Shown here in pieces: positions 22,108 through 37,206 of a stretch of DNA of 64,000 nucleotides (its first letter is position 1; every line of letters begins with the position of its first letter). Both the position numbers and the translations under genes were made by a program. Origin of the DNA: an uncultured Verrucomicrobiae bacterium. Its GTDB lineage: Bacteria; Verrucomicrobiota; Verrucomicrobiia; Limisphaerales; UBA11358. The notes beneath the pieces were generated by a model, which had not been told where the DNA came from, searched no databases, and worked only from the letters and a program-made list of their open reading frames with translations. The stretch lies in NCBI GenBank assembly GCA_963802965.1, contig CAWDKS010000008.1, positions 5,053 to 69,052 of the forward strand, in the 5' to 3' direction.

Positions 22108-23907
22108 ATGCCGCCACTGAATCCTGAATTGTTGGCCAAAGCAAAAGGTTTGGGTTTTTCCGACCGGCAGATCGCCCATTTGACCGGCGCCACCGAGGAT
22201 GAAATCCGCGCGCGGCGGAAAAAGCTCGGCCTCGTGCCCAGCTACCGGCTGGTGGACACCTGCGCCGCCGAGTTCGAGGCTTACACGCCGTATTATTATT
22301 CGACCTACGACCGCGGTGACGACGAGGTCAGACAGTCGCCAAAGAAGAAGGTGATGATTCTCGGCGGCGGGCCGAACCGCATCGGGCAGGGAATTGAATT
22401 CGACTACTGCTGTGTGCACGCCGCCTTTGCGCTCAAGGAAGACGGCTTCGAGACCATCATGGTCAATTCCAACCCGGAAACCGTCTCCACCGACTACGAC
22501 ACGAGCGACCAGCTTTTCTTCGAGCCGCTCACGCTCGAAGACGTGCTGCACATTTACGAGCGCGAGCAATGCTGGGGCGCCATCGCGCAATTCGGCGGCC
22601 AGACGCCGCTCAACCTCGCGCTCGGCCTCCAGAAAAACGGCGTCAACATCATCGGCACCTCGCCGCAGGGCATCGAAACCGCCGAGGACCGCAAGCTCTT
22701 CGCCGCGATGCTGGACAAGCTCGAGATTCCGCAGCCGCCCAACGGCATGGCCACCAACGAAGCCGAGGCGCTCAAGGCCGCCAAAAAACTCGGCTACCCG
22801 ATTTTGGTCCGTCCGTCCTTTGTGCTGGGCGGCCGCGCGATGCAAATTGTTTATTCCGACGCCGAGCTGCAGCATTACATGCGCTTTGCGGTCGAGGCCT
22901 CGCCGAAACGCCCGGTGCTCGTGGACAAATTTTTGGAGGACGCCACGGAAGTGGACGTGGACTGCATCGCGGATGTCGGACAGTTCAAAGAGCCGGACGA
23001 GGGAACCATTGTCATCGGCGGGATGCTGGAGCACATCGAGTTTGCCGGTGTCCACTCCGGCGATGCCGCGATGGTGCTGCCGCCGCATGCGCTGGCCAAA
23101 AAGGTCATCGAAACAATCCGCGATTACACGCACGCCATGGCGCGGGAATTAAAAGTCATCGGCCTGATGAACGTGCAATACGCGGTAAAAGGTGACACGG
23201 TCTATTGCCTCGAAGTCAATCCGCGCGCGTCGCGCACCGTGCCGTTCGTATCCAAGGCCATCGGTGTGCCGCTGGCAAAGCTGGCGGCGAAAGTCATGGC
23301 CGGCAGGACGCTCAAGGAACTGGGTTTCACGAAGGAAATCCGGCGGAAGTATTGGGCGGTGAAGGAGTCGGTTTTCCCGTTCAACCGTTTTCACGGGCAG
23401 GACATTTTGCTCTCGCCGGAAATGCGCTCGACCGGCGAGGTCATGGGCCTGGACGCCGACCTCGGCATCGCCTACGCGAAATCGCAAATCGCCGCCGGCG
23501 CGTCCCTGCCGTTGAGCGGAAAGATTTTCATCAGCGTGAGCGACGCGCACAAAAAACAGGTTGCGGCGGTGGCCAGACAATTTGTCGAACTGGGCTTTGA
23601 ACTGGTCGCCACCGGCGGCACGGCGGGCGTGTTGGAAAAGGCCGGGCTGAAAGTTCAGCGCATTTTCAAGCTGGCCGAGGGGCGGCCCAACGCGATTGAC
23701 CTGCTCAAGAACAAGGAAATCCAGTTCGTCATCAACACGCCGAGCGGCGCCACGCCGCGCGCCGACGAAATCAAAATCCGCACCACTGCCGTCTATACCG
23801 GCACACCGATCATGACGACGCTGAGCGGCGCCAAGGCCGCCGTACTCGGCATCGCCGCGCTCAAGAAATCAGGCTACAGCGTGAAGACGTTGCAGGAGTA
23901 TCATTAG
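22108..23907 (+). CDS. carB: Carbamoyl-phosphate synthase large subunit, C-terminal half only
   Basis: GFSDRQIA, VDTCAAEF, LGGGPNRIGQGIEFDYCCVHA, RPSFVLGGRAM, EVNPRASRT and an MGS domain; 599 aa. Confidence 0.9.
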   Translation: MPPLNPELLAKAKGLGFSDRQIAHLTGATEDEIRARRKKLGLVPSYRLVDTCAAEFEAYTPYYYSTYDRGDDEVRQSPKKKVMILGGGPNRIGQGIEFDYCCVHAAFALKEDGFETIMVNSNPETVSTDYDTSDQLFFEPLTLEDVLHIYEREQCWGAIAQFGGQTPLNLALGLQKNGVNIIGTSPQGIETAEDRKLFAAMLDKLEIPQPPNGMATNEAEALKAAKKLGYPILVRPSFVLGGRAMQIVYSDAELQHYMRFAVEASPKRPVLVDKFLEDATEVDVDCIADVGQFKEPDEGTIVIGGMLEHIEFAGVHSGDAAMVLPPHALAKKVIETIRDYTHAMARELKVIGLMNVQYAVKGDTVYCLEVNPRASRTVPFVSKAIGVPLAKLAAKVMAGRTLKELGFTKEIRRKYWAVKESVFPFNRFHGQDILLSPEMRSTGEVMGLDADLGIAYAKSQIAAGASLPLSGKIFISVSDAHKKQVAAVARQFVELGFELVATGGTAGVLEKAGLKVQRIFKLAEGRPNAIDLLKNKEIQFVINTPSGATPRADEIKIRTTAVYTGTPIMTTLSGAKAAVLGIAALKKSGYSVKTLQEYH

Positions 23908-24580
23908 CGCGTTTCAATTTCGCCACGGCGATGTCCGCCTGCCGCGTCGGTTCGGGGATGCGATGGCGCGTGCAGCAGGCCAGAACCAGTTTGATGGCTG
24001 ACGCCAAATCCACGCGCTGCCCGACGCTCACAAACACCGGGCGGATTCCTTTTTGCGTCCGCAGCACGGCGCCGATTTGTTCATCCCCATCCTTGAGCGC
24101 CGTCGTTGCGCCGGCATTTGATGCCAGTTTTCCGAATGTCCCAATCAACCTGCTTTTGGCGACGCCGACCCCGGGTTTGTCCAATTGAATCGCCAGATGC
24201 GATGCGATGCCGCAGCGGCGCGGGTGCGCGAAGCCTTGCCCGTCGAAAAGAATCGCGCCGAATTCGTGTCGTAACGCGCGAATCGCCTGCATCACCGCCG
24301 GGCCTTCACGAAAGCTGAGAAAGCCGGGAACGTAGGGGAATTCCGCCGGCCGGGTGGCGTGCGCGACCTCGATGATGCGATGCGTTTCGCGGTCGTAAAC
24401 AACAGCGGCGGCGAAGACGGTTTGTTTGTCGTTGGAAAACGCGCAATCGGCCCCGGCGACGAATCGCGGCAGCGGTTTCAGCGGTGCGAAAATCATCCGC
24501 TCGCACAGATGCGATTGTTCGGCCTTCCATTTGGCGATGAGCGCGGACCAATCGGGATCGAATTTGCCGCGTAGCGTCAT
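23861..24580 (-). CDS. nfi: Endonuclease V
   Basis: VAGAD, FPYVPGFLSFRE, DGQGFAHPRRCGIASH, GVAKSRL, RIPEPTRQAD. Confidence 0.93.
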   Translation of the reverse strand: MTLRGKFDPDWSALIAKWKAEQSHLCERMIFAPLKPLPRFVAGADCAFSNDKQTVFAAAVVYDRETHRIIEVAHATRPAEFPYVPGFLSFREGPAVMQAIRALRHEFGAILFDGQGFAHPRRCGIASHLAIQLDKPGVGVAKSRLIGTFGKLASNAGATTALKDGDEQIGAVLRTQKGIRPVFVSVGQRVDLASAIKLVLACCTRHRIPEPTRQADIAVAKLKRANDTPATSSRCSLIS

Positions 24581-27500
24581 AGACCCGCTTCCTTTGGCGG
24601 CGCGCGCAACACGCGATAGGTGTGCGTCCAGGGATCAATCCGGCAGGCGGCGCGGTAATCACAATATTCGCAGGGTGTTTCGCTGCCTTTGCGATACGGG
24701 TCCACTTTCGCCACGCCGGAAAAAATCGCGCGGCCCATGTCGCGCAATTGCCTCTCAACGCGGTCGAGCAATTTTTCAAATTCCACTCGTGGCAACGCCT
24801 CGGCCGAACCTTTGCGCAACGAGCCGTCCTTGTTCCGCTGATAGCTGAATTGATCCGCCGCTCCAATGCGGTCCAGTTTCGGCAACACGCTGGCGTCGAA
24901 CCGTCCCGTGTGGCGGTAGGCGCGTTTGCGCGCGGCGCCGGCATCCTCCAGCGCCTCGGCCCGCGTGCTGCCGCTTTCGTATTGGCCGCGCAGGTTCACG
25001 TAAAAAACACCCGCCGGAACCAGACGCGCCACGCCGAGCGCGTCGCGCGGGTTCGCCCAATGCCGGAGCACATTCAAATATGCCAGCAACTGCAACTGCA
25101 CACCATGCTCCAACAATATCGCATCAAGCTTTTTGCCGCTGGATTTGTAGTCCATCACCAACGCCAGCGCGGTATCGCTGCCCGGCTCACGCCACAAATC
25201 CACGCGGTCAATCCGCCCGTGCAGCTCGACCCGGTGGCCATCGCCCCAATCCAATTCCCACGCCGGCGCGCGGGCGCCGTCACCACCGAAATCCAGTTCC
25301 GCCGCCGCCGGGTCAAATTCGTTCTGCTCCCGCAGCCACGTCACCACAACCTCGATGAAATCCTGCAGCGACTCGGTCATCGCGCGCGCCTCGAACTGCG
25401 ACTGCGCCGTGTCGCGCAGCAATCCGCCGCGGAAATTTCCCGTCAATTCAACCGCGATGGCGCGAATTCGTTCCCGCGCTTCGGGCGGCGTCAAATCGCG
25501 CCAACGCGCGCCTTCGGCGGCCAGGCGTTCATGGAAAACTTTCAGCACGTCGTGCTGGAAACTGCCCCGTTCCCGCGCGTCGAGTTCAAAAATCTTCCGT
25601 TCCCCGGCCCGCAAACCGCTGCGGACAAAAAACCGGAACGGGCATTGGGCAAATTCCTCGAGCCGGCTCACCGACGTCTGCAGCGCCGGGCCGAAAAGTT
25701 TTTCCGCCAGTGCCGGCGACAAATTTTCCGCCGGGTCCGGCTCACGCAAACACCGCAAGCTTTCGGCGAGCGATTTCAAGGAAGGCAGTTCGAGCAATTC
25801 GGACCAGCCAACATTTGTAGGAGACGACGTAAGGAGTCGCTTTTTTGATTTGAGCCTCGTTACCTCGGCTCCTACGGAATTTTGAATTTCGACCAGCGGC
25901 GCGGCAATTTCGGCGGGATGCACCACTTCAGCCATGCCAATTTCGCCGCCGAATTCCTCGATTTCCAGTTTGGGAAACAACCGTCGCAAATGTGAAATGA
26001 ACGGCGATGGATTCAGCGTTTTGCCGCCGGCATCGTGGCGGGCGAAGGTCACGGCCAGTCGTTCGCTGGCGCGGGTGCAGGCGATGTAACCGTAGTAACG
26101 TTCGCGCGCCAGCCGTTCCCGCAAATCCGGGCCGAGCGTGACGCCGCCTTGCTCCAATTCATCGCGGTCGGCGTCCGTCAAAATGGACGGCGCGGCGGGC
26201 GCGGCGGGAAAGACGGATTCGTTCACGCCGAGCACGAGCACAAATTTCAAGTTCGGGTTGCGGGCGCGGTCAATGGCGCCGACCAGCACTTCATCAAGCA
26301 CGGGCGGAATCACGCCGACGGTCAGGCTGGCCAAGCCCGCCTCCAAAACCGGCAGCCAGTCGCGCAAGGGCAGCGCTTCGCGAGGGAACGCGAGCGCCAC
26401 GTTGTCCAGCCACACATTCATTTGCTCCCAAACGGTCTGGTGGATTGACGATTGACGATTGACGATTGACGATTGTTCCCGGCCGGCCAGGCTCCAACGT
26501 TCCAGGGTTTTTTCCACGTCAAGTTCGTCCCAGAATTCGCGAAGTGCGTCGGCAAGCTCTCCGCCGGCCGGCTGGTTTTTGTGCTGCGCGAGTCGCGCGG
26601 CGAAATCCCCAAACGGCGGAAGAATTTCTCGGCGCAGCCGTTCCAGCGAATGGTCATCGGTTGGCAGCGGCGCGCGCCATTTTGTGCCGCGCCAGCCAAA
26701 TTCCAGCGCGGCATTTTCGAGCCGGTCAATTTCGTTTTCGTCAACGCCGGAAAACCCGGCCTTGAGCGCGGCAAACCAGTCGTCATGCGGCCAGTCGAAG
26801 GCGACCGTCCGAAGCGCGCTGCGGGTGAGTTCGGCCAGCGGGTGATGCGCGACGGATTCACGGCGGTCCAGGAAAAACGGGACACCATAACGACGAAACA
26901 CGCGCGCCAGCGGTTGGTGATAACTATCGAGGTTCCGCACGAGCACGGCGCAGTCGCGGAACCGGTTGCGGCGGTTTTTGTCACGGACAAATTTCAGAAT
27001 TTCGCGCGCGGCGAAAGTCGCTTCGGCTTCGGGATTCGTGCAGGCGCTCAAGGAGATGGCAGATGGGAGTTGGGAATTGGAGGCTGGCTTCGCCCAGTTT
27101 TCTTCGAGTTGTGCGAGGTCGGAATTTTTGGCAAAGCGCCTTTTGAACGAATCACGTTTAAGAATTTCGATTTTGCCGTCCGGCAGATTTTCAATCCGCC
27201 GACGGCATTGCTGAAAGGTTTTTCCGACCGGCGACCAGATGGAGGGCCACGAAGTTTCCGCTTCAGGCTCGTTTTCGAGGCAGAACGCGAGCGTCGCTCG
27301 CTCGCAATGCGGCAAAATGGCGGCGAGCAAGTCCAATTCCTGCGGCGTCATTTCCGCGAAACCGTCGAGCCACAGGCCGTCAAAGTTGAGGGTTGAGGGT
27401 TGAGGGTTGAGGGTTGCTCGACGCAGCGCGGCGGTGGCAAAACCGAGCAGGCGGTTCGCATCCTGCAATCGGTGTCGGGCGAGCCAGCTTGCGTAAACTT

Positions 27501-28002
27501 CGTCCAGCAGCGCGAGGTCGTGAAGTTTGTCCTGCAGTTCGCGGCGTCCCGCCAGGCGGGAGGCGAGCGCGCGGAGTCTGGCGGGTGTGAACTGGTGTTG
27601 TTGCAGTTCGCCGAGCAACCGGCTGAGTTCCCGGGAGAACCCCGGCCGGCGCGCGCTTCGGCGGAACAGCTTCAATTCCTTCTCGTGCAGCAGCAACAGG
27701 GCGCGCAAGACCATCACGCGGCCTTCTTCGGTGAGCAGTTGCGGCGGCGCGACGTTCAATTTTTCAAGGACAAATTGCGCCAGCCGCTCGAACGAAAAAA
27801 TATGGAGCCGCGTATAACCATCGAACCCCGCCGCTGCGGGATCGGCAAGCAACTGCCGTTCGAGCTGGAACGTGGCCTGTTTGGGCGCGAGCAAAATCAG
27901 CGGCGGACCCTCCGCGCCTTCCCGCAAGGCGGCGCGGATTTCGGCCAGGCAGCGGAACGTTTTGCCGCTGCCGGCGGGCCCGAGAAGAAAGCGCGCTGGC
28001 AC
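24577..28002 (-). CDS. addB: AddB-like ATP-dependent helicase/nuclease subunit
   Basis: GPAGSGKT, SVSRLEEFAQCPFRFF, GRIDRVD, DYKSS, LQLLAY, CEYCDYRAAC (Fe-S staple); GTG start at 28002 inferred. Confidence 0.9.
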   Translation of the reverse strand: MPARFLLGPAGSGKTFRCLAEIRAALREGAEGPPLILLAPKQATFQLERQLLADPAAAGFDGYTRLHIFSFERLAQFVLEKLNVAPPQLLTEEGRVMVLRALLLLHEKELKLFRRSARRPGFSRELSRLLGELQQHQFTPARLRALASRLAGRRELQDKLHDLALLDEVYASWLARHRLQDANRLLGFATAALRRATLNPQPSTLNFDGLWLDGFAEMTPQELDLLAAILPHCERATLAFCLENEPEAETSWPSIWSPVGKTFQQCRRRIENLPDGKIEILKRDSFKRRFAKNSDLAQLEENWAKPASNSQLPSAISLSACTNPEAEATFAAREILKFVRDKNRRNRFRDCAVLVRNLDSYHQPLARVFRRYGVPFFLDRRESVAHHPLAELTRSALRTVAFDWPHDDWFAALKAGFSGVDENEIDRLENAALEFGWRGTKWRAPLPTDDHSLERLRREILPPFGDFAARLAQHKNQPAGGELADALREFWDELDVEKTLERWSLAGREQSSIVNRQSSIHQTVWEQMNVWLDNVALAFPREALPLRDWLPVLEAGLASLTVGVIPPVLDEVLVGAIDRARNPNLKFVLVLGVNESVFPAAPAAPSILTDADRDELEQGGVTLGPDLRERLARERYYGYIACTRASERLAVTFARHDAGGKTLNPSPFISHLRRLFPKLEIEEFGGEIGMAEVVHPAEIAAPLVEIQNSVGAEVTRLKSKKRLLTSSPTNVGWSELLELPSLKSLAESLRCLREPDPAENLSPALAEKLFGPALQTSVSRLEEFAQCPFRFFVRSGLRAGERKIFELDARERGSFQHDVLKVFHERLAAEGARWRDLTPPEARERIRAIAVELTGNFRGGLLRDTAQSQFEARAMTESLQDFIEVVVTWLREQNEFDPAAAELDFGGDGARAPAWELDWGDGHRVELHGRIDRVDLWREPGSDTALALVMDYKSSGKKLDAILLEHGVQLQLLAYLNVLRHWANPRDALGVARLVPAGVFYVNLRGQYESGSTRAEALEDAGAARKRAYRHTGRFDASVLPKLDRIGAADQFSYQRNKDGSLRKGSAEALPRVEFEKLLDRVERQLRDMGRAIFSGVAKVDPYRKGSETPCEYCDYRAACRIDPWTHTYRVLRAPPKEAGL
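25817..25875. repeat. GTAG-type REP doublet, family F, in frame in addB
   Basis: 24 nt (GAGCCTCGTTACCTCGGCTCCTAC) identical to intergenic 50395-50418; peptide VGAEVTRLKSKKRLLTSSPT. Confidence 0.85.
26443..26475. repeat. (GATTGAC)x4.7 heptamer tract in addB
   Basis: Peptide QSSIVNRQSSI. Confidence 0.85.
27385..27416. repeat. (GTTGAGG)x4.6 heptamer tract in addB
   Basis: Peptide TLNPQPSTLN; same unit intergenic at 50740-50767. Confidence 0.85.
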
Positions 28003-28174
28003 AAGGGATTTTTTGTCCAAAATCGCGCGGTCGCAACGCAATTTATCCAAAAAATGGCAAAGGCCGTGCGGTGGGCGGCTGTATTTTTTATTTCCTTTTG
28101 AGCGGGTTGGACTATGATTGCCCGCTGTTGAAAAAATCCGGATTCGATTCAACAACAAACAACATGGAAAGCTT

Positions 28175-29140
28175 ATGCCACTGACACACACCCGGGAATT
28201 GTTTGCGAAGGCGTTGAAGGGCAAATACGCCCTCGGCGCGTTCAACGTCAACAACATGGAGCTGCTTCAGGCCATCGTCGAGGCGTGCGAGGAGGAAAAG
28301 GCGCCGGTGATGCTCCAGATTTCCAAGGGCGCGCGCCAATACGCCAACCCCGTCTATCTCAAGAAGCTCATCGAGGCGGCCGTCAGCCTGTCCACCATCC
28401 CGATTGCGGTGCATTTGGACCACGGCGACACGTTCGAACTGTGCAAGGACTGCATTGACGAGGGGTTCACCAGCGTGATGATTGACGCCAGCCACGAGCC
28501 GTTCGAGAAAAACGTCGAAATCACCAAAAAGGTCGTGGAATACGCGCACAAGCACAATTGCGTGGTGGAATCCGAACTCGGCCATCTCGTCGGCGCGCAA
28601 TTTGACGAAGGCGAGGAAGGCGGCGCGCATTCCGCCAGCGGCCATTACACCGTGCCGGAAGACGTGGTCAAATTCGTCAAGGAATCCGGCTGCGATTCAC
28701 TGGCCGTGGCCATTGGCAATTCGCACGGCGCCTACAAGTTCAAGGGCGAGCAGCACCTCGATCTGGAACGTCTCAAGCTCATCAAAAAGGCGCTCATGGA
28801 TGCCGGAATGGGCGACTATCCACTGGTGCTGCACGGAGCGTCGAGCGTGCCGAAGGAACTGGCCGAGGAAATCAACAAATACGGCGGCAAGCTGGGTACC
28901 GACACCGCCGGCGTGCCGGAGGCGGACATCGAGGTCGCGCGCCGCACCGGCTGCACCAAGGTGAACATTGACACCGATCTACGCCTCGCGATGACGGCAG
29001 CCATTCGCCAGGCGATGTTTGAGAATCCAAAGGAATTTGATCCGCGCAAATATCTCGGCCCGGCCCGCAACAAGGTGAAAGACCTCGTCCGGCATAAAAT
29101 CAAAGACGTGCTCTGCTGCGCCGGTCACGCGTTTGATTAG
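28175..29140 (+). CDS. fba: Class II fructose-bisphosphate aldolase
   Basis: GAFNVNNME, HLDHG, SVMIDAS, LAVAIGNSHGAYK, LVLHGASS, KVNIDTD, DPRKYL. Confidence 0.95.
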   Translation: MPLTHTRELFAKALKGKYALGAFNVNNMELLQAIVEACEEEKAPVMLQISKGARQYANPVYLKKLIEAAVSLSTIPIAVHLDHGDTFELCKDCIDEGFTSVMIDASHEPFEKNVEITKKVVEYAHKHNCVVESELGHLVGAQFDEGEEGGAHSASGHYTVPEDVVKFVKESGCDSLAVAIGNSHGAYKFKGEQHLDLERLKLIKKALMDAGMGDYPLVLHGASSVPKELAEEINKYGGKLGTDTAGVPEADIEVARRTGCTKVNIDTDLRLAMTAAIRQAMFENPKEFDPRKYLGPARNKVKDLVRHKIKDVLCCAGHAFD

Positions 29141-29550: not shown

Positions 29551-30897
29551 GTGTTCGATTCGTTAAGCGGCAAGCTCCAGAACGCCTTCCGGAACCTGCG
29601 CGGGCTTGGAAAAATTTCCGAGGCCAACGTCGCCGATTCCCTGCGCGAAGTCCGCATGGCATTGCTGGAGGCCGACGTGAATTTCAAGGTTGCACGCGAC
29701 TTCATCGAGCGCGTCAAAACCAAATCGCTCGGCGCCGAAGTCGTCGCCAGCGTCCAGCCCGGCCAGCAAATCATCAAAATCATCCATGACGAACTCGTGG
29801 ACCTGCTCGGCTCGCAAAACGCCGGGCTGAATTTGAACGGCAATCCGACCTGCATCCTGATGGTCGGCCTGCATGGCTCCGGCAAGACGACTTCCAGCGG
29901 CAAGCTCGCGCGGCTGCTCCAAAAGCAGGGACGCCAGCCGTTGCTCGTCGCGGCGGACGTTTACCGTCCGGCAGCCATGGACCAATTGGAAACGCTCGGA
30001 AAGCAGCTTGAATTGCCGGTGTTCGTCAAACACGGCGAAACGGATGTTTCGAAAATTGCGCGTGAGGCGCTCGATTTCGCGAAAACAAACAACCGCAACG
30101 TCTTGATTTTTGACACCGCCGGCCGGTTGCAGATTGACGAACCTCTCGTGCAGGAGCTCGTGCGCCTGCAAGACCTCGTGAAGCCGCAGGAAATCCTGCT
30201 CGTGCTGGATGCCGCCACCGGACAGGAAGCCGTGAACGTCGCCACGCATTTTGATCAGGCGCTGCAAATCACCGGCTCCATCCTGACCAAGCTCGACGGC
30301 GACGCGCGCGGCGGCGCGGCATTGAGCCTGAAGGCCGTCACCGGCAAGCCCATCAAGTTTGCCGGCATGGGTGAAAAGCTGGACGAGTTCGAGCCGTTTC
30401 ATCCCGAGCGCATGGCGTCGCGGATTCTCGGCATGGGCGATGTTGTCAGTCTTGTCGAGAAGGCCGCCGAGGCCGTGGATTTGGAGGATGCAAAGCGCAT
30501 GGAAGAAAAAATGCGCAAGGGCCAGTTCACGCTGGAGGATTTTCTCGGGCAACTGCGCCAGATGAAAAAGCTCGGCTCGCTCGAAAGCGTCGTCGGGATG
30601 CTGCCGGGGGGCGCGGAGATGTTGAAGCAGCAGGGCGATTTGTCGAAGCAGGAAAAGGAATTCCACCGGATGGAAGCGATGATTTGCGGCATGACGCCGC
30701 AGGAACGCAAAAGCCCGCAAATCCTGAACGCCAAACGCCGCATTCGCATCGCCAAGGGCAGCGGCGTGAGCGTGACGGAATTGAACACCATGCTCAACAA
30801 GTTCGGCCAGATGCAGCAGATGATGAAGAAAATGGGCAAGTTTACTAAGATGATGGCCAAGATGGGCGGCGGCTTGCCGGGGATGTTGCGGAGGTGA
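29551..30897 (+). CDS. ffh: Signal recognition particle protein Ffh
   Basis: LLEADV, GLHGSGKTT, DVYRPAA, DTAGR, DGDARGGAALS, Met-rich M domain. Confidence 0.97.
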   Translation: MFDSLSGKLQNAFRNLRGLGKISEANVADSLREVRMALLEADVNFKVARDFIERVKTKSLGAEVVASVQPGQQIIKIIHDELVDLLGSQNAGLNLNGNPTCILMVGLHGSGKTTSSGKLARLLQKQGRQPLLVAADVYRPAAMDQLETLGKQLELPVFVKHGETDVSKIAREALDFAKTNNRNVLIFDTAGRLQIDEPLVQELVRLQDLVKPQEILLVLDAATGQEAVNVATHFDQALQITGSILTKLDGDARGGAALSLKAVTGKPIKFAGMGEKLDEFEPFHPERMASRILGMGDVVSLVEKAAEAVDLEDAKRMEEKMRKGQFTLEDFLGQLRQMKKLGSLESVVGMLPGGAEMLKQQGDLSKQEKEFHRMEAMICGMTPQERKSPQILNAKRRIRIAKGSGVSVTELNTMLNKFGQMQQMMKKMGKFTKMMAKMGGGLPGMLRR

Positions 30898-30933
30898 AAT
30901 TTGTTCCGGGTTTGCCGTGCAACCGAACAGAAA

Positions 30934-31557
30934 ATGGACGTGAACAAAATCAAGTCCGCGCTGGCTGACATCACGGCCGAGCGGGACCCGACGCTCAAAA
31001 GCGCCAAGCTCGCCTCGCTGTGTAGCGCGTTGTGGGCGGCGCGCGGCGTGGAACTCGTCGTGGTCGGCGGTTCGGCGATTGAGATATTGACGGAAGGCGC
31101 GTATGCCTCCGGCGACCTCGATATGTGCCACATCACGAAGGCGACCTTGCCGATTGTTGAGCGGAAAGCAATCATGGGCTTGCTTGGCGCCAAAGGCGGT
31201 CCGCGCAACTGGCAGGTGGCTGGCATGTATCTGGATTTGCTCGGCCCTGCGGAAAGCTTCGCGCACACGCCGTTCCGCCGCATCGAAGCGCCTTACGGAA
31301 GTTTTCTGGTGATGAAGCCGGAAGATTTGCTGGTCGAGCGCGTCTTGATGACGTTTTATCCTGGCGAAAGTCAAACGGCGCATGACTGTGCGAAAAAATT
31401 TATCTCGGTCATTCTCACAGGCGGCGTTGCTGTGAATTGGAATGAGGTGCGCAGACTTGCGAATCTGCCGGAATATCGTAACCTTCCACAGTGCGTGAAA
31501 CTGGTGCAAGAAGTCGCCGATGAACTCAAAATCAAAAGTCCCCTGCATCCCGATTGA
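30934..31557 (+). CDS. Nucleotidyltransferase-fold protein (DUF6036-like), putative TA component
   Basis: VVVGGSAIE...YASGDLD (hG[GS]...DxD) and PEDLLVER. Confidence 0.6.
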   Translation: MDVNKIKSALADITAERDPTLKSAKLASLCSALWAARGVELVVVGGSAIEILTEGAYASGDLDMCHITKATLPIVERKAIMGLLGAKGGPRNWQVAGMYLDLLGPAESFAHTPFRRIEAPYGSFLVMKPEDLLVERVLMTFYPGESQTAHDCAKKFISVILTGGVAVNWNEVRRLANLPEYRNLPQCVKLVQEVADELKIKSPLHPD

Positions 31558-31729
31558 AGGCTCGATCAGTTGGGAAGACTGGTTGAAAGGCCGGCGGTTT
31601 CGTCGTAAAATGGGCAATCGGGTCGCGCCGGAAATCATCCGGCGCAAGCGCAGTTCCAGCGACCGGCGGCTGAAAAAACTCTTCAACGGCGAACGCGGCC
31701 TGCCCTTCACGCCCACAGAAAAACTTTGA
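31520..31729 (+). CDS. Small basic hypothetical protein, putative partner of the NTase
   Basis: 69 aa, Arg/Lys-rich; overlaps the NTase 3' end and ends at the duplicated ffh segment. Confidence 0.4.
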   Translation: MNSKSKVPCIPIEGSISWEDWLKGRRFRRKMGNRVAPEIIRRKRSSSDRRLKKLFNGERGLPFTPTEKL

Positions 31730-31800
31730 AGAAGACAGGTCAGTTCCAGAAAATGATGGCCCGCATGGGCGGTGGCCTGCCGGGAATGTTGCGGAGATAA
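31726..31800 (+). pseudogene. Diverged duplicate of the last 25 codons of ffh
   Basis: Reads LKKTGQFQKMMARMGGGLPGMLRR* versus ffh MKKMGKFTKMMAKMGGGLPGMLRR*; 56/75 nt identical to 30823-30897. Confidence 0.9.
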
Positions 31801-31849
31801 AATCGGTGAATCGACCTCTCAACGATTTCACTTTTGCTCAAAATAATGT

Positions 31850-31879
31850 CACTCATCGCCGATAGACTCATTTCCGACA
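31850..31879 (+). promoter_or_regulatory. C-box-like tandem operator
   Basis: CACTCATCGCCGATA GACTCATTTCCGACA: two ACTCAT boxes at 15-bp period, 19 nt before the XRE start codon. Confidence 0.5.
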
Positions 31880-31898
31880 ACGGTGTGAAATATGCGTC

Positions 31899-32126
31899 AT
31901 GCGTAAGCGTGACTCCATCCTTTGCTCGTTCGGGCAAAGCGTAGCAAAGCATCGGCGAGCCCAAGGTCTTTCCCAAGAAGTCCTCGCAGAAAAAGCTGAC
32001 CTCGACCGCACTTACCTCAGCGACATTGAGCGCGGCGTCCGCAATCCCGGGATCAAAAATGTTATTCTGATCGCCAAAGCTTTGGGCATCACGCCCGCCG
32101 ATTTGTTGAAGGGAGTCGGCGGATGA
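31899..32126 (+). CDS. XRE-family HTH regulator resembling R-M controller (C) proteins
   Basis: GLSQEVLAEKADLDRTYLSDIERGVRNP; 75 aa; ATGA overlap with the next gene. Confidence 0.85.
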   Translation: MRKRDSILCSFGQSVAKHRRAQGLSQEVLAEKADLDRTYLSDIERGVRNPGIKNVILIAKALGITPADLLKGVGG

Positions 32127-34094
32127 ACCAAATCCGGACCATGCGGTTAAAAATCGCCGCCCTCTTTGAATTCGAGGGAAAAACTCCGCTCGCGAATGCA
32201 AACGATGTTGTTTCCATCACGCCGCTTGTTTTGAAGCAGTTCGGTTTTCTTCCGCAACCCGTGATGGTGACAGTCGAAGGCGATGAGGTTGTAATTCAAT
32301 GTCCCGAAGAAACAGCGGCTGCCCAAACTGAAGCCGCCCGGCTCGCCGAACGCGCCGGAAAACGCGCAGCCGAGGGCAACTATGAAAAAGCCATCGGCAT
32401 TCTCAAGCGTGTTTTGCAATTGCAACCTTCGCTGCATAAGGCACGCCGCGACCTAGCAATGGCTTATGTCGAGACCGGCGACGTTGACAACGCGACGAAT
32501 CATCTGATTGAGGTTCTCCGGCTTGATCCGGGCGATGCGTGGAGTTGGGTCGTGCTGGCCAATCTTTACATCCGGGAAAAGTCAGACAAAGAAACCGGAG
32601 AAAAGTTTCTGCGCAAAGCACTTGAAATCGCGCCGAATGACGCATGGGCGTTAAACAGCCTGGCATCCGTGACTTTTGAACACGGCAAGACCGATGAAGC
32701 CATTTCACTTTTCGAGCAGGCGATTAAATCCAATTCTGAATTTGCAAATGCATACTACGGCGAAGCCATCGCCTACGCAAAAATAGGGCAGCCGGACAAA
32801 TCACTCACCGCACTCGAAAGACTTTTTGCCCACGCAAAAATGCAAGATGCGCGGTCGAAAACGGTTTACGACGGCGCCCGGCAGCTCTTCGGCAAACTGC
32901 AGGTTGACCTTGCCCAGCGCAACGAATCGGAAACTTTCAAGCTCGTCCAGAATTACAAAGCCGAGATGGAAATCCTGTCTGGCTATCCGATCCGAATTCA
33001 GGAGGAGAATTTCGAAAGCAAAATCGGCGCGACAATTCTGATGGCCTGGAAGCACAGGCGCGATTTCCATTTGGTGAAGATTAGAGCGGATTACCCCCCC
33101 CCCATTAGTCAATCACTTAGAGAGCCACGAACTCACCCATCTCAAGCTGGAATCCGAGGCTCGCAAGGTTGGTAAAAATCTTTTCTTTGCCACCACCGCC
33201 AAGACGCGAGACACGGCCATTCGTGCGGTTGCCGGAGACATCCGCAAGTGGGAAAAGGCCGGGCGCTCCGAAGAACAAATCACCAAGATCACCTTGATGC
33301 TGGTCGGCGGGCTTTGTGAGTTTCTGTTTAATTGTCCGCTCGACATGCTGATTGAGCGGCATCTGCGCGACACATTCAAACCACTCCAACCCGCGCAGTT
33401 CCTCTCCGTGCAGCTCATGGCAAACGAAGCGTGGCAGACGAATAGCAACCCGGAGATCCGCCGGTTGACGCCGCGAAAGATTTTTCAGGCGAGTCTCACC
33501 TTGAACGGAGCTTACGGTTTGTTCTTGGATGATCTCTTTCACAGTGCATCGACCTTTGCGGCGCAGTATCGAAGCTCGGACACTTTCGGTTTATCACAGC
33601 GGCTTTACAAACATTGGCAGGAGCGCGCCAAGAATCTTGGGCCTGGCGACGAGTATGGTTTGGTTGATGAATTTGCCGACATGACCGGTCTGCGTGACTG
33701 GTATGAATGGCGGCCTGACCCCGGCCATCACGAGGCGACCGCCGAACCGCTCAAACAAGGCATAACCAATCCGGCGCTGCTCAAAGTAAAACAGCCGGCG
33801 GCGGTTTTTTATTTCCTAGACGCTTTCAAGCGATTTGATGCTATGACGCCGGAGCAGGTGCGCGACGTCGCGTTTGAAATCGCGCTGCTGGGCCGGGACG
33901 GACTTGACTACGCCGCGCCTGACGAGAAATACGAACTCCGCGCGCTGCCCGACCGGAAATTCTCCGGCTTGCACCTCATGTGCCTCATGTATGCGGGCTT
34001 TAAGCGCGTCGCACCGGAACACGACCCTGGGATGGATTTAATCGACCCTTTTTTAACTGCGCTGCAATTACACCAAGCACAAGGAGGCAAGTGA
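32123..34094 (+). pseudogene. TPR + HExxH protein, frameshifted at C10 (33094-33103)
   Basis: ORFs 32123-33175 (TPR repeats) and 33294-34094 join into 656 aa if one C is removed: ...DYPPPLVNHLESHELTHLKLE...NCPLDMLIE. Confidence 0.78.
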
Positions 34095-36487
34095 TGAGAC
34101 TCTACGCTGGTTCGAGTGAGGAATTTATTTCCGATTCGGTTAATAACCGGATTGCGGACAAGCTAAAAACTGCTTTCTTTGGAGAATTCCGTTATAACCC
34201 TTCGCCAGGTGAAGTAAATTCTTGGCGAAATTCGCTTCGCGCTTTGTCACAGGTTTTCCAATATGGGGAATTCAGGGGGCACGGTGTGTTGCTGGAATAT
34301 GAGCTTCCCCTCACGTCAAAACGGTTGGATTGTTTGATTACTGGTCGAGACAATTTGCTCAACGATCAAGCGGCAATTATCGAATTGAAGCAGTGGGAGA
34401 AGTGCGAAGAAGGCGACGCCGAACGAATTGTCACATTTGTTGGAGGCAACAATCGCGATGTTCTTCACCCCTCGGTTCAAGTTGGCCAATACCGCCGCTA
34501 TCTCGCCGATTATCAGCCCGCGTTTTATGAAGGCGAATCTCCCATCGGCCTGCGGGCCTGTTCATACTTGCATAATTACACACCGGAAGACGGCGACGCC
34601 TTGTTCGCTCTACAATACGCGCCATATATCAAGGAGTGTCCACTGTTCACCGGCGACGATGTCGCAGAGCTGACAGGCTATTTGCGTGAGTTCTTGGTCA
34701 AAGGCGATGACCAACACGCGCTCCGCCGGATACTCGAAGGTAAATTCCGTCCAAGCAAAAAACTCCTTGACCATGTCGGGAAGGTTTTGGACGGCAAACC
34801 TGAATATGTATTGCTTGATGAGCAGTTGGTTGCATTTGAGCGGGTGATCGCAACCGTGCGCGAAGGAATTAAACAGCGGCAGAAAGCGGCAATTATTATT
34901 CGGGGCGGTCCGGGCACGGGAAAGTCCGTCATCGCACTCAATCTTTTATCCGCACTCGCTCGTGAGGGGGTAAGCGCTCAATACGTTACAGGCTCAAAAG
35001 CATTCACAGAAACCTTGAGGAAAATTGTTGGCGATAGAGCCGATACGCAAGTCAACTATTTTAACAGTTATATGCAGTCGGATTTTAATGAGCATGATGT
35101 TCTGTTGTGCGATGAAGCTCATCGAATCCGGGAAACCAGCAACAATCGTTTTACCAGAGCGGCGCATCGTTCAAACCGTTCACAAATTGAGGAACTTTTC
35201 CATGCGGGTAAGGTGCTTGTCTTCTTCATCGATGACCGTCAGGTCGTTCGTCCTGGGGAGATTGGTTCAGCAACAGTCATCACAGATTCGGCGAAAGTTC
35301 AAGGGGTAAGGCTCTTCGACTACAAACTAGAGGCGCAATTCCGATGTGCTGGGTCGGCTGGCTTTGTGAACTGGATTGAAAACACCCTTGAAATCGAGCG
35401 GACGGCAAATGTGTTGTGGAATGTGAATGATAAATTCGAATTCGGGATTGTCGATTCACCGCAAGCATTGGATAAAATCGTCCGCAGCAAACTCGAAGCG
35501 GGAAACTCGGCTCGCCTGATGGCAGGTTTTTGTTGGGACTGGTCTGACCCGTTGCAGGACGGCAATTTGGTTGATGATGTCGTCGTCGGTGATTTTAAGC
35601 GCCCTTGGAATGCGAAGCCCGGCGCTGGTCGCGTAAAACGAGGAATACCCAAGGCGACACTGTGGGCTCACGACGCACGTGGAGTGGAACAGGTCGGCTG
35701 CGTATACACGGCACAAGGTTTTGAGTTCGACTACGCCGGTGTCATTTTTGGGCCAGATTTGGTTTACCGTCCGGGAAAAGGTTGGATTGGTCAGCATGAG
35801 AATTCGTTTGATACAGTGGTCAAACGGTCAAAAGAAAATTTTTTAGAACTTGTGAAGAACACCTATCGGGTTCTTTTTTCCCGCGCAATGAAAGGTTGCT
35901 ACGTTTATTTCGTCGACAAGGAAACGGAAAACTTCTTTCGAAGCCGTATCGAGGGCGGCGCAATTGTGGATGAAGTCGAAACTACAAAAGAATTGGTTCC
36001 GCCTCTACCTTTCCGCATTTTGGAAGAACACGAGTTGGAACGTTTTGTAAACGCCGTTCCCATCTTCGATTTACAAATCGCGGCAGGGTCTTTCAGCGAA
36101 GAGCAGTGGATCGACGAATGTAAGTGGGCTCAGTTGCCTGATCCGTTTGTAGCAAAGAAGGGGTTTTTCTTAGCGAAAGTCGTGGGCGAATCGATGAACA
36201 AGAGAATTCCAAATGGATCGTGGTGCATGTTTAAAGCATCACCGGAAGGCAGTCGGCAGGGCAAAGTTGTTTTGGTGCAGCATCGCAAGATTCAAGATCC
36301 AGACAGCGGGCAGTTTACCATAAAGATTTACGACAGTAAGAAAATCGCCCTTGAGGATTCTTGGAGGCACGAACGTATCATTTTAAGGCCCGATTCGCAC
36401 GAAAGTGGTTTTAAAGAGATCGTCCTGCATCGAGATGACGCTGCTGAATTGAAGGTGATTGGCGAATTTGTAGCTGTTGTGGGCTAA
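34091..36487 (+). CDS. DUF2075 (Schlafen group 3-like) nuclease-helicase with C-terminal S24-like domain
   Basis: RLDCLITG..IIELKQW, HPSVQV, GGPGTGKS, CDEAHR, QFRC, VYTAQGFEFDY; C-terminal IAAGSF...VGESMN...FTIKIY; lower GC. Confidence 0.82.
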   Translation: MMRLYAGSSEEFISDSVNNRIADKLKTAFFGEFRYNPSPGEVNSWRNSLRALSQVFQYGEFRGHGVLLEYELPLTSKRLDCLITGRDNLLNDQAAIIELKQWEKCEEGDAERIVTFVGGNNRDVLHPSVQVGQYRRYLADYQPAFYEGESPIGLRACSYLHNYTPEDGDALFALQYAPYIKECPLFTGDDVAELTGYLREFLVKGDDQHALRRILEGKFRPSKKLLDHVGKVLDGKPEYVLLDEQLVAFERVIATVREGIKQRQKAAIIIRGGPGTGKSVIALNLLSALAREGVSAQYVTGSKAFTETLRKIVGDRADTQVNYFNSYMQSDFNEHDVLLCDEAHRIRETSNNRFTRAAHRSNRSQIEELFHAGKVLVFFIDDRQVVRPGEIGSATVITDSAKVQGVRLFDYKLEAQFRCAGSAGFVNWIENTLEIERTANVLWNVNDKFEFGIVDSPQALDKIVRSKLEAGNSARLMAGFCWDWSDPLQDGNLVDDVVVGDFKRPWNAKPGAGRVKRGIPKATLWAHDARGVEQVGCVYTAQGFEFDYAGVIFGPDLVYRPGKGWIGQHENSFDTVVKRSKENFLELVKNTYRVLFSRAMKGCYVYFVDKETENFFRSRIEGGAIVDEVETTKELVPPLPFRILEEHELERFVNAVPIFDLQIAAGSFSEEQWIDECKWAQLPDPFVAKKGFFLAKVVGESMNKRIPNGSWCMFKASPEGSRQGKVVLVQHRKIQDPDSGQFTIKIYDSKKIALEDSWRHERIILRPDSHESGFKEIVLHRDDAAELKVIGEFVAVVG

Positions 36488-36651
36488 ATGGTGATCAATG
36501 CCTGTATACGACATTGATGCTGCTAAGCCGCCCGCCCTTGCCAACCAAACTCCTCGCGCCCCTTCAGGGCGCATATTTTTGTGGGACGATTTCCGTAGCG
36601 CCTTCAGCGCATTTCAGTTTGCGCCAATTCGTGCAATTCGTGTCAAAATCT

Positions 36652-37206
36652 TCAACTTGGCAGCGGCCCGCCGGCATTGATTTTGTGTTTCAAGCAGTAA
36701 GCGCCGTTGTCCACGTATTTCTCCGCCCACCATTTCAGTCCGGCGCGTTCTTTCTTGGATAATTTGCGGACGACTTTTGCCGGCGCGCCGAGCACGAGCG
36801 AGCCTGGCGGGATTTTTGTTCCCTGCGTCACCAGCGCCTTCGCGCCGATGAGCGATTGTTTGCCGATGACCGCGCCGTCCAAAATCACCGCGCCCATGCC
36901 GACCAACACTTCGTCGCCGACTTTGCAGGCGTGAACTATCGCGCCGTGGCCGACGGTGACCCAGTTGCCGACGATGCACGGAAAATCGTCGGCGAGGTGC
37001 AGCACGGCGTTGTCCTGGATGTTGGTGTGATGGCCGACGACGATGCGGTTGATGTCGCCGCGCAGCACCGCGCCATACCACACGCTGGAATACGCGCCGA
37101 GCGTCACGTCGCCGAGGACGACTGCGGTTCGGGCGAGATAGACACCCCGGCCGAGCCGCGGCTGTCTGCGCAGGAACGTGTCGAGTTGTTTCACCGTATT
37201 TTTCAC
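36652..37206 (-). CDS. Gamma carbonic anhydrase family protein
   Basis: AVLRGD, TNIQDNAVLH, TVGHGAIVHAC hexapeptide repeats. Confidence 0.92.
   Translation of the reverse strand: MKNTVKQLDTFLRRQPRLGRGVYLARTAVVLGDVTLGAYSSVWYGAVLRGDINRIVVGHHTNIQDNAVLHLADDFPCIVGNWVTVGHGAIVHACKVGDEVLVGMGAVILDGAVIGKQSLIGAKALVTQGTKIPPGSLVLGAPAKVVRKLSKKERAGLKWWAEKYVDNGAYCLKHKINAGGPLPS

Follow-up and report, generated by a model that had tools for sequence, protein, structure and literature searches.

We analysed a 64,000-nucleotide stretch of DNA from an uncultured Verrucomicrobiae bacterium (GenBank assembly GCA_963802965.1, contig CAWDKS010000008.1), hereafter called the window, which denotes the whole stretch, and in it an operon of three co-directional plus-strand genes at 31843-36487 (Table 1). 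In this order the genes encode an XRE-type controller (C) protein, a protein combining tetratricopeptide repeats (TPRs) with an HExxH motif, for which we use the name TPR-zincin, and a putative nuclease-helicase resembling the Nhi defence proteins. On balance, our reading is that a phase-variable sensor-protease, controlled by the C protein, serves as front end to nuclease-based defence modules, and that in the window it is switched OFF. The reading is carried by two sets of observations on the TPR-zincin gene: in different genomes it is followed by different defence genes, and its coding sequence contains a homopolymer tract, of which both in-frame and out-of-frame lengths are found among relatives.

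A single scan of genome contigs, with an alignment of the family, gave 71 loci (L001-L071), mostly in metagenome-assembled genomes (MAGs) of Verrucomicrobiota, together with Pontiella, one Aminicenantes, one Chloroflexi and one Kapaibacterium. In 42 of these the 3′ end of the gene and about 1 kb or more of downstream DNA were available; the loci left out lie at contig ends (L007, L012, L020, L026, L040, L044, L045, L049) or carry a short form of the protein (L051-L071). The next or next-but-one same-strand open reading frame (ORF) belongs to a defence family in 27 of the 42 loci, mostly after a gap of 0-80 bp, and the kind of this cargo varies. DUF2075 proteins (L001, L005, L006, L009, L010, L018, L021, L022, L027, L036, L039, L046) come in at least four length types, of 737, 764, 620-660 and 798 amino acids, most of them without an S24 domain. 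Restriction-modification (R-M) genes are represented by a type I methyltransferase (L003), a type I restriction endonuclease (L004), type II restriction endonucleases (L013, L031), a C5 methyltransferase (L025) and a type III restriction endonuclease (L038). McrBC-like PDC-M26A genes with DUF2357/PDDEXK_7 follow in L014, L029, L035, L043 and L050, an Mrr-like gene in L015, BrxA-BrxB-BrxC in L023 and L030 and the gene of a WYL protein in L048. The upstream ORFs of 19 loci, by contrast, gave one clear defence match (PDC-S05, L018) and one partial domain match (L006).

For the history of this association we used a maximum-likelihood tree built from 39 C-terminal halves, leaving out rows with an internal frameshift (e.g. 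L006, L022). Twelve cargo labels require 23 changes on the tree, the minimum being 11 and the mean of shuffled labels 25.6, with 9 of 200 shuffles as low. As the labels lie near the shuffled expectation, cargo has been swapped almost freely behind the TPR-zincin gene. We lean towards the view that this is a promiscuous front-end gene, working with or ahead of whatever follows it and not with the helicase in particular.

The original prediction had proposed, under controller logic, that the three genes form a system of their own, with the TPR metallopeptidase and the S24 domain together controlling the nuclease-helicase through proteolysis; co-occurrence of the three families in other genomes was to be its test. 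The tight operon with overlapping stops and starts would suit such a system, as would the conservation of catalytic motifs in all its parts and the fact that L006 and L009 contain the exact trio again, with DNA 88-89% identical. A gene similar to the window helicase (P0002-like) is found downstream in about a dozen loci; its 798-amino-acid S24 type, however, occurs in three of the 42 (L006, L009, L022), the DUF2075 types are of unrelated lengths, and at least eight other kinds of defence cargo follow the TPR-zincin gene. A close XRE homologue adjoins that gene, as judged by tblastn, in 6 of the 71 loci, and opposite-strand, divergent XRE genes are found in L015, L016 and L047. The C gene and the S24 helicase accompany the TPR-zincin gene in close relatives only. 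Furthermore, fusions of nuclease, DUF2075 and S24 are abundant across phyla among the matches listed, and the OFF allele described below leaves the helicase intact, which argues against the peptidase as its indispensable partner or antidote. We consider a dedicated trio very improbable.

Several of the loci deserve separate notice. A MazG-like (PF12643) gene of about 116 codons is located between TPR-zincin and the DUF2075 helicase in three distant loci (L021:8963-9313, L039:8962-9312, L046:2637-2996), which suggests a two-gene module of MazG and DUF2075. The type I R-M operon of L003 ends with a 384-amino-acid RmrA/CapP-like protein (L003:10823-11977; RmrA 3.5e-16, capP 3.1e-14), and as this protein stands behind TPR-zincin, two different peptidase-type accessories are present in one operon. 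In L017 a Mokosh-like helicase gene (MkoC 1.9e-68) and a DRT1-type reverse transcriptase-nitrilase gene (Drt1a, E = 0), both on the minus strand (L017:9052-15973), converge on a TPR-zincin copy without same-strand cargo, and this locus looks like a defence island. ORFs without a PADLOC or Pfam match stand directly behind TPR-zincin in L008 (9431-10705), L016 (8981-9583), L041 (8850-10148), L002 (8930-11725, minus strand), L034 and L042, and by their position they are candidate unknown defence genes; the 424-codon ORF of L008 faces a convergent type II methyltransferase gene and may encode a new restriction endonuclease. Finally, L001, L003 and L017 are labelled as MAGs of Bifidobacterium or Bifidobacteriaceae, while their cassettes are 78-85% identical to those of Verrucomicrobiota and have about 55-60% GC (guanine plus cytosine), so that the labels are possibly unreliable.

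The second set of observations concerns the reading frame. The middle gene is not one open frame in the window: its first frame, beginning at 32123, meets a stop at 33175, and from the shift onwards it is the +1 frame that stays open, as far as 34094. The shift occurs at a run of ten C residues (C10), and no other G/C run in the window reaches 7. As it stands, the gene would give a product of 350 amino acids, in which the N-terminal domain and the TPRs are followed by 24 residues read out of frame and the HExxH helix is absent. With nine C residues it encodes 656 amino acids, matching proteins of about 650 amino acids from end to end at up to 93% identity (best 120 of 459 matches listed); given this match, the single-ORF form is the native one and the window allele is out of frame. 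One could suppose a decaying island, in which the middle gene is a pseudogene and the operon no longer functions, and both the frameshift and the lack of neighbouring defence genes would agree with decay. Against this, the lesion is single and falls exactly at a hypermutable tract, both halves of the gene are open and 85-93% identical to intact homologues, and the C gene, the operator and the 797-codon helicase gene are intact with all catalytic residues. Decay of the operon is thus highly improbable.

Tracts of variable length recur in the family. At the position of the window tract (site 1) the uninterrupted tracts number 14 and range from C7 to C10; 8 keep the frame and 6 break it. In-frame tracts are C9 in L001, L002, L003, L005, L006, L007 and L028 and C10 in L018 in its own codon context, and the out-of-frame ones are the window C10, C7 in L009, C8 in L010 and L029 and C10 in L033 and L035; two interrupted tracts are in frame (L004) and out of frame (L021). 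The OFF alleles are scattered on the tree, those of the window and L009 standing beside the ON alleles of L002 and L003. Another clade carries poly-G at residue ~507 (site 2: G10 in L012, G11 in L020, G9 in L024, L025 and L050), and in L050 the frame breaks exactly at this tract, while L048 and L049 have G9 at the 5′ end of the gene (site 3). Over all loci, 716,914 bp in total, we counted 21 G/C runs of at least 8, of which 17 lie inside the TPR-zincin gene, two just 5′ of its span and two elsewhere; the span as delimited by tblastn covers 103,178 bp, or 14.4% of bases (binomial P = 1.6e-11). The three prolines encoded by the tract are not conserved family-wide, other clades having YDPEL, YSPEL or LPEDL, and CCC accounts for 60 of the 200 proline codons in six intact genes, so the tract is not needed by the protein. 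Many database entries of 320-356 amino acids begin near the tract position, which fits split gene calls, although contig ends could also cause them.

The TPR-zincin gene is thus a candidate phase-variable contingency gene, with a long simple repeat inside the ORF and in-frame and out-of-frame lengths among strains, and the poly-C run, which had been regarded as a lesion to repair, looks like a recurrent phase-variation switch and not a one-off event. Tracts of this kind can give rise to programmed ribosomal frameshifting or transcriptional slippage, and some leaky ON expression at C10 might come about in this way. The C7 and C8 alleles, however, would remain unexplained, as they would need a shift in the opposite direction. 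Consecutive prolines are ribosome-stalling motifs dependent on EF-P, and the ON-frame tract (window 33092-33103) encodes Tyr-Pro-Pro-Pro just before the active-site helix; it could act translationally too.

The first gene of the operon would supply the controller. Its product, which had been proposed to be controller-like, matches the PADLOC model Control_protein (PDLC03665) at 1.6e-21 and Pfam HTH_3 at 3.6e-17, and its best solved relatives are C.AhdI (5.8e-12), C.BclI (6.7e-10) and C.Esp1396I (5.5e-9), ahead of DdrO and SinR; by these matches it is assigned to the true R-M controller family. The hexamer ACTCAT, noted earlier as boxes at a 15-bp period, occurs in the 64 kb five times on the plus and four times on the minus strand, and two copies (31851, 31866) are 15 bp apart. 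To these two an alignment of the window with L002, L003, L006, L007, L009 and L029, over the 150 bp that precede the XRE gene, adds their surroundings: a block of about 52 bp, ATTGTCACTCATC[A/G]CCGATAGACTCATTTCCGACAA-GGTGTGAA-TATG, is almost invariant in the seven loci, and upstream of it the sequences cannot be aligned. The coding DNA of the same loci is 76-89% identical, and the boxes exceed chance because about 52 bp around them are near-invariant while coding DNA differs by 11-24%. The block consists of two tandem 15-bp units, [C/G]ACTCAT-NN-CCGA, framed by inverted ATTGTC/GACAA. The PvuII-type C-box (PMC2175313) is GACT-N3-AGTC-N4-GACT-N3-AGTC, e.g. GACTCATAGTCTGTAGACTCAAAGTC, and the window block agrees with it in the 15-bp period and in the half-boxes CACT-CAT and GACT-CAT. 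A putative controller-type operator is therefore well supported, which exact C-box membership is not. There is no visible Shine-Dalgarno sequence before the C gene, and its mRNA may for this reason be leaderless.

As in the R-M operons of C.PvuII, C.AhdI, C.BclI and C.Esp1396I, a protein of the same small helix-turn-helix (HTH) family is encoded first, with the operator upstream of its own gene and potentially toxic products downstream. Unlike there, the next gene is TPR-zincin and not an endonuclease gene, and searches with Pfam, PADLOC and NCBIfam found no methyltransferase or restriction endonuclease gene in the operon or its flanks in the window; controller logic on a non-R-M, defence-type unit had been predicted, and the gene content agrees with this. 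The C cassette also precedes type I R-M genes in L003 and McrBC-like and DUF2075 cargo in other loci.

An HTH gene directly before an HExxH protein, ahead of defence genes, is also the arrangement of the CapH/CapP, ImmR/ImmA and DdrO/IrrE switches, and TPR-zincin might by analogy sense a signal and cleave the C protein, thereby de-repressing the operon. The XRE protein matches capH at 6.8e-11 as well as DdrO structures, a fold search in BFVD gave a weak match of TPR-zincin to an IrrE N-terminal-like domain (52 columns, E 0.52), and regulators of HTH and metallopeptidase type are known beside diverse defence systems (10.1101/2022.04.27.489752). Most TPR-zincin genes, however, have no adjacent HTH gene, the protein gives no match to capP or M78 models, and the C protein of 75 amino acids is compact, lacking the C-terminal extension that such peptidases cut. 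Moreover, CapH/CapP is described in the same source as standing on the strand opposite to its cargo, whereas here all genes are co-directional. TPR-zincin also differs from M78/CapP proteins in its 656 amino acids and its TPRs. A predicted complex of TPR-zincin with the C protein (score 0.00, mark 0.32) gives no answer either way. An HTH-cleaving switch appears improbable to us.

The boundaries of the operon coincide with changes in homology. Between the window and L006 and L009, DNA similarity (88-89%) spans exactly 31839/31847-36486, with unrelated flanks, and that with L002, L003, L007 and L029 ends at about 34066, the end of the TPR-zincin gene, beyond which the cargo is different. On the left side homology to relatives begins abruptly at 31838-31847. 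The possibility that the operon is a core gene group beside a hotspot was rejected, as upstream contexts differ between close relatives and homology starts abruptly at the operator. The GC content over 32-37 kb is 0.48-0.55, that of the flanks about 0.59, and no ORF flanking the operon in the window matched a defence model. Such abrupt cassette boundaries, unrelated flanks, GC dip and defence-free flanks point to a mobile unit, and we think it somewhat probable that 31843-36487 is a self-contained, horizontally moving and putatively anti-phage operon of three modules. Searches around 31600-36800 for att-like direct repeats or terminal inverted repeats gave short, chance-level matches and nothing more.

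The architecture of TPR-zincin comprises an N-terminal beta/alpha domain of about 62 amino acids, some ten TPR helices, with many TPR family matches at residues ~75-245, and a C-terminal domain of about 400 amino acids with the HExxH motif. This last domain had no match in Pfam, NCBIfam, PADLOC-DB 2.0.0 or PHROGs. In 34 sequences, with identities as low as 41%, H335, E336, H339 and E343 do not vary. AlphaFold (AF2) models are confident, with a predicted local distance difference test (pLDDT) score of 87.3 (full length) or 86.3 (C-domain). In them the TPRs form a solenoid, and the C-domain begins with three strands and a long helix bearing HExxH, after which come one more strand and a large bundle of helices. 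In a library clustered at 50%, a C-domain profile recovered 2037 representatives at E <= 1e-3 and 343 at <= 1e-30, most of them about 650 amino acids long with the domain at 250-650. The short form of about 370-470 amino acids, found in MAGs of Terrimicrobiaceae/Spartobacteria (L051-L061; e.g. L053:2945-4060, L059:2466-3584, L052:1515-2918), aligns solely over query 4-276, the TPR part, and query 544-652, the final ~110 residues, and is devoid of the HExxH core. Behind it in L059 stands the gene of a 164-amino-acid protein, the C-terminal half of which matches Control_protein at 2.6e-17, and in L053 it adjoins an SspA/DndA-like gene.

The third gene, described earlier as DUF2075 nuclease-helicase-S24, matches PF09848 (DUF2075/SLFN-g3 helicase) at 4e-84 over residues 265-609 and, in its tail, PF00717 (Peptidase_S24) at 2.1e-5, with 24.7 bits at a cut-off of 23.3. 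The helicase and S24 parts of that description are thereby supported; for the nuclease part, the N-terminal 240 amino acids gave no family or structure match and the assignment depends on the invariant motif D79...E97-L-K99. PADLOC models matched the protein partially (PDC-S41 1e-17, AbiO 2e-12, Nhi 1e-11), and sequence searches of the PDB with the S24 tail, the nuclease-helicase part and the full helicase profile yielded nothing useful. Besides D79, E97 and K99, the alignment of 31 helicase sequences has GGPGTGKS, DE, A664, S700 and K744 invariant, and thus by sequence the effector carries the Ser-Lys dyad of LexA-like S24 peptidases. Its AAG (residues 663-665) precedes S700 by 36 residues, the G being replaced by S or T in some homologues; in LexA the Ala-Gly-to-Ser spacing is about 35 residues. 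As in LexA, UmuD and phage repressors, the dyad goes with GxSM and an upstream Ala-Ala-Gly at LexA-like spacing; unlike in LexA and UmuD, the domain is placed at the C-terminus of a nuclease-helicase and not with an HTH domain or UmuD′. In a survey that gave 7844 matches among 8000 candidates, the 120 of 7844 matches listed include common fusions of nuclease, DUF2075 and S24, of about 800-825 amino acids and from several phyla, as well as forms of about 620 amino acids without the tail. All 30 of the 30 aligned homologues start with MRLYAG, and the start ATG 34094 is on this account more likely than GTG 34091; it is preceded, 6 nt upstream, by AAGGAGG and overlaps the preceding TGA by one base (TGATG).

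From these parts the following working of the operon may be proposed. By analogy with the C proteins that control endonuclease genes, the C protein would bind the conserved operator and autoregulate its promoter, delaying or limiting expression on entry into a new cell, and autoregulation of this kind suits a unit moving between hosts. TPR-zincin may then act as a sensor-protease ahead of, or together with, the following nuclease module; its substrate might be a phage protein such as an anti-restriction factor, a regulator or, in the manner of Lit-like abortive infection, a host factor. Slippage in the tract would make the gene switch stochastically, ON at C9 and OFF at C8 or C10. In the OFF state translation would end 0.9 kb before the effector gene, the coupled expression of which would probably be lowered, with the mRNA exposed to polarity, but not abolished, because the effector has its own AAGGAGG. 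As OFF alleles are frequent while the effector is intact, the peptidase is apparently not an essential antidote to the nuclease. The effector, an Nhi-like PD-ExK nuclease with a superfamily 1 (SF1) helicase, would attack replicating phage DNA by degrading or unwinding it. Its S24 tail most likely self-cleaves at Ala-Gly (AAG, Ser700, Lys744) in an activation or inactivation step, with RecA filaments as a possible trigger.

Several points weigh against this reading and should be set beside it. To begin with the sample, all loci come from a single collection dominated by Verrucomicrobiota MAGs, and 15 of the 42 have no same-strand neighbour from a defence family. Opposite-strand defence genes are present in four of the 15 (L011, L017, L028, L037) and defence genes further off in L019, L041, L008 (the convergent methyltransferase) and L033; the rest have unannotated ORFs alone. 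These 15 loci would agree with TPR-zincin as an autonomous, Lit-like abortive-infection effector that senses a phage protein and cleaves an essential host factor; it would then do no more than share promoters with other defence genes, and its positional bias would be a matter of cassette capture. With a TPR sensor joined to a catalytic domain, the protein has all that a sensor-effector requires. Phase variation would be apt for an effector that is costly or toxic, and control by a C protein for a toxic product. Against such an effector stands the same-strand, near-zero-gap arrangement in 27 of 42 downstream neighbourhoods as compared with 1 of 19 upstream, which exceeds the expectation from island clustering; TPR-zincin also gave no match to U49 or any other peptidase family in Pfam. 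We regard an autonomous effector as unlikely.

A second weakness lies in the tract lengths. Errors in homopolymer length are a known sequencing weakness, at 8 or more residues and in long-read MAGs above all, and several of the loci are long-read MAGs with other frameshifts (L006, L008, L013, L022, L034, L041), so that some tract lengths may be errors; L009 (C7) also carries extra frameshifts outside its tract. If all out-of-frame tracts were sequencing or assembly errors, the gene would be constitutively in frame. Yet the out-of-frame C8 tracts of L010 and L029 and C10 tracts of L033 and L035 lie on contigs with assembler names of the short-read type, candidates for such data by name alone, and errors leave unexplained why tracts exist at three sites of one gene. 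The concentration of long G/C runs in this gene, the lack of conservation of the prolines and the fragments beginning near the tract, notwithstanding their other possible cause, further argue for genuine variation. That errors explain the out-of-frame tracts as a whole seems to us rather improbable.

The remaining points concern the individual components. Comparison of the C-domain fold with PDB and BFVD gave 0 matches at E <= 1e-3: proabylysin, a minigluzincin, came first in the PDB (75 columns, E 0.78, probability 0.85), selecase ranked below it and minigluzincins overall stood at E 0.78-2.7. The viral matches in BFVD, at E 0.03-0.5, included zincin proteases (E 0.03-0.4) and a domain like the IrrE N-terminus. 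None of these matches was significant. The full-length model retrieved TPR proteins alone, a profile of the zincin domain against PDB sequences gave designed repeat proteins at E 0.005 or worse, and in the ESM Atlas the C-domain hit unnamed clusters (0.90-0.93) and DUF5781 (0.89), which are leads and nothing firmer, whereas the N-terminal 66 amino acids had no usable match. The modelled C-domain may accordingly be called zincin-like and outside the described peptidase families, the term peptidase deriving from the motif together with topology and weak fold matches. In the operator, the B half-boxes CACC and TTCC differ from the AGTC of the PvuII consensus, so that the C-box proposed earlier holds for its period and GACT-CAT halves and fails for the AGTC halves, and a simple sigma-70 consensus scan found no promoter-like site at the boxes. 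The Nhi and AbiO matches of the effector are confined to its ATPase core. The functional reading as a whole is built on sequence and models.

The original prediction did not recognise the combination as a named system, and none was found by us in the hidden Markov models (HMMs) of PADLOC-DB 2.0.0 (2023 copy), Pfam, NCBIfam or the literature searched. Openly searchable literature, supplements aside, contained no TPR-zincin family ahead of defence systems and no DUF2075-S24 fusion, and in the main text of the DefensePredictor paper the terms DUF2075, S24 and metallopeptidase do not occur. The architecture of nuclease plus DUF2075 is that of Nhi and Nhi-like defence proteins (10.1101/776245; 10.1101/2022.05.11.491447). 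The window effector shares the PD-ExK-type motif and the DUF2075 SF1 helicase with Nhi/Nhi-like proteins, PDC-S41 and AbiO, but unlike Nhi and AbiO it has an extra LexA-type S24 tail and sits in a regulated three-gene operon; such a tail on a common Nhi-like family offers a lead on how single-protein nucleases are restrained. BrxR/CapW and RptR are described as regulators upstream of diverse defence systems (10.1101/2022.04.27.489752; PMC12255303). TPR-zincin resembles BrxR/CapW (WYL) and RptR in standing upstream of BREX, R-M and other systems, and differs from these DNA-binding repressors in having a catalytic motif and no recognised DNA-binding domain. Among phase-variable defence genes, homopolymer or repeat tracts are known in mod and hsdS of R-M systems, and pglX, which belongs to the Pgl system of Streptomyces, has a G-tract. 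The gene of TPR-zincin is like them in its in-ORF homopolymer within a defence operon and its in-frame and out-of-frame lengths among strains. It is unlike them in that the switch is located in the gene of a putative accessory sensor-protease at the head of the operon and at three sites of one family, and in that the lineages are environmental Verrucomicrobiota and not host-adapted pathogens.

The known upstream regulators of defence (C proteins, BrxR/CapW, CapH/CapP, RptR) are DNA binders or small HTH-peptidase pairs, while here a large, putatively catalytic sensor protein would take the same promiscuous upstream position with a mutational switch of its own. In a bolder version, which we put forward tentatively and would not bet on, the TPR-zincin family is an undescribed, widespread defence 'master front end' that leads R-M types I-IV, BREX and Nhi-like modules and, by a repeatedly evolved ON/OFF switch, bet-hedges whole defence operons in free-living environmental bacteria. 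Were it true, the family could be used as a flag for unknown defence cargo, several of the downstream ORFs being unannotated, phase-variable immunity would extend beyond host-adapted pathogens through a switch convergent at three sites of one gene, and unrelated nuclease systems would offer a testable case of a shared sensing or licensing layer. If the protease hits phage anti-restriction proteins or licenses the nuclease, it would constitute a new layer of immune control across unrelated systems.

The coordinates of all features are collected in Table 1. The lower-GC gene trio in the ffh zone, as well as the HELTH, Walker A and ELK motifs and the S24 Ser and Lys, had all been listed in the original prediction and are present, the last two in GESM and TIKIY. 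With respect to the predicted translational coupling, the stop of the XRE gene and the start of the TPR-HExxH gene do overlap in ATGA, while the second junction is probably TGATG and not the GTGA assumed before.

Table 1. Features of the operon in the window (positions are those of the whole 64,000-nucleotide stretch)
Feature	Position	Strand	Remarks
Putative conserved operator/promoter region (C-box-like)	31843..31898	+	near-invariant in 7 loci
ACTCAT boxes	31851-31856, 31866-31871	+	conserved; one T for C in L009
Controller (C) protein gene, 75 amino acids, XRE/HTH_3	31899..32126	+	Pfam, PADLOC and PDB matches
TPR-zincin gene	32123..34094	+	frameshifted; first frame ends 33175
Poly-C tract, C10	33094..33103	+	in-frame length C9, codons Y-P-P-P
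HELTH (HExxH) codons	33126..33140	+	in frame reached only after shift
Nhi-like effector gene, 797 amino acids, ORF intact	34094..36487	+	alternative start GTG 34091
Putative nuclease motif RLDC (D79) ... ELK (E97, K99; ELK 34382-34390)	34322..34390	+	invariant, 31 sequences
Walker A GGPGTGKS	34904..34927	+	Walker B DE at 35111-35116
LexA-type S24 domain	36056..36484	+	AAG 36080-36088, GESM 36185-36196, TIKIY 36317-36331
Terminator-like hairpin with T-run	36556-36572, T-run to 36582	+	closes operon; from a consensus scan alone

Upstream of the operon the window contains ffh (29551-30897), a tRNA-Tyr gene and a class II aldolase gene, and downstream of it a gene of the metallo-beta-lactamase fold. 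The ffh gene is not followed by the usual rpsP-rimM-trmD; instead, two ORFs without a family match are found, of 218 (30901-31557) and 69 codons (31520-31729). An ORF of 717 codons on the minus strand (29563-31716), which overlaps ffh, is probably spurious. Farther away, the minus strand encodes at 24577-28257 an AddB-type protein of 1226 amino acids (ADDB_N 3e-57, PD-(D/E)XK 1.7e-37), adjoining endonuclease V (23861-24580); both are housekeeping repair genes and lie outside the island.

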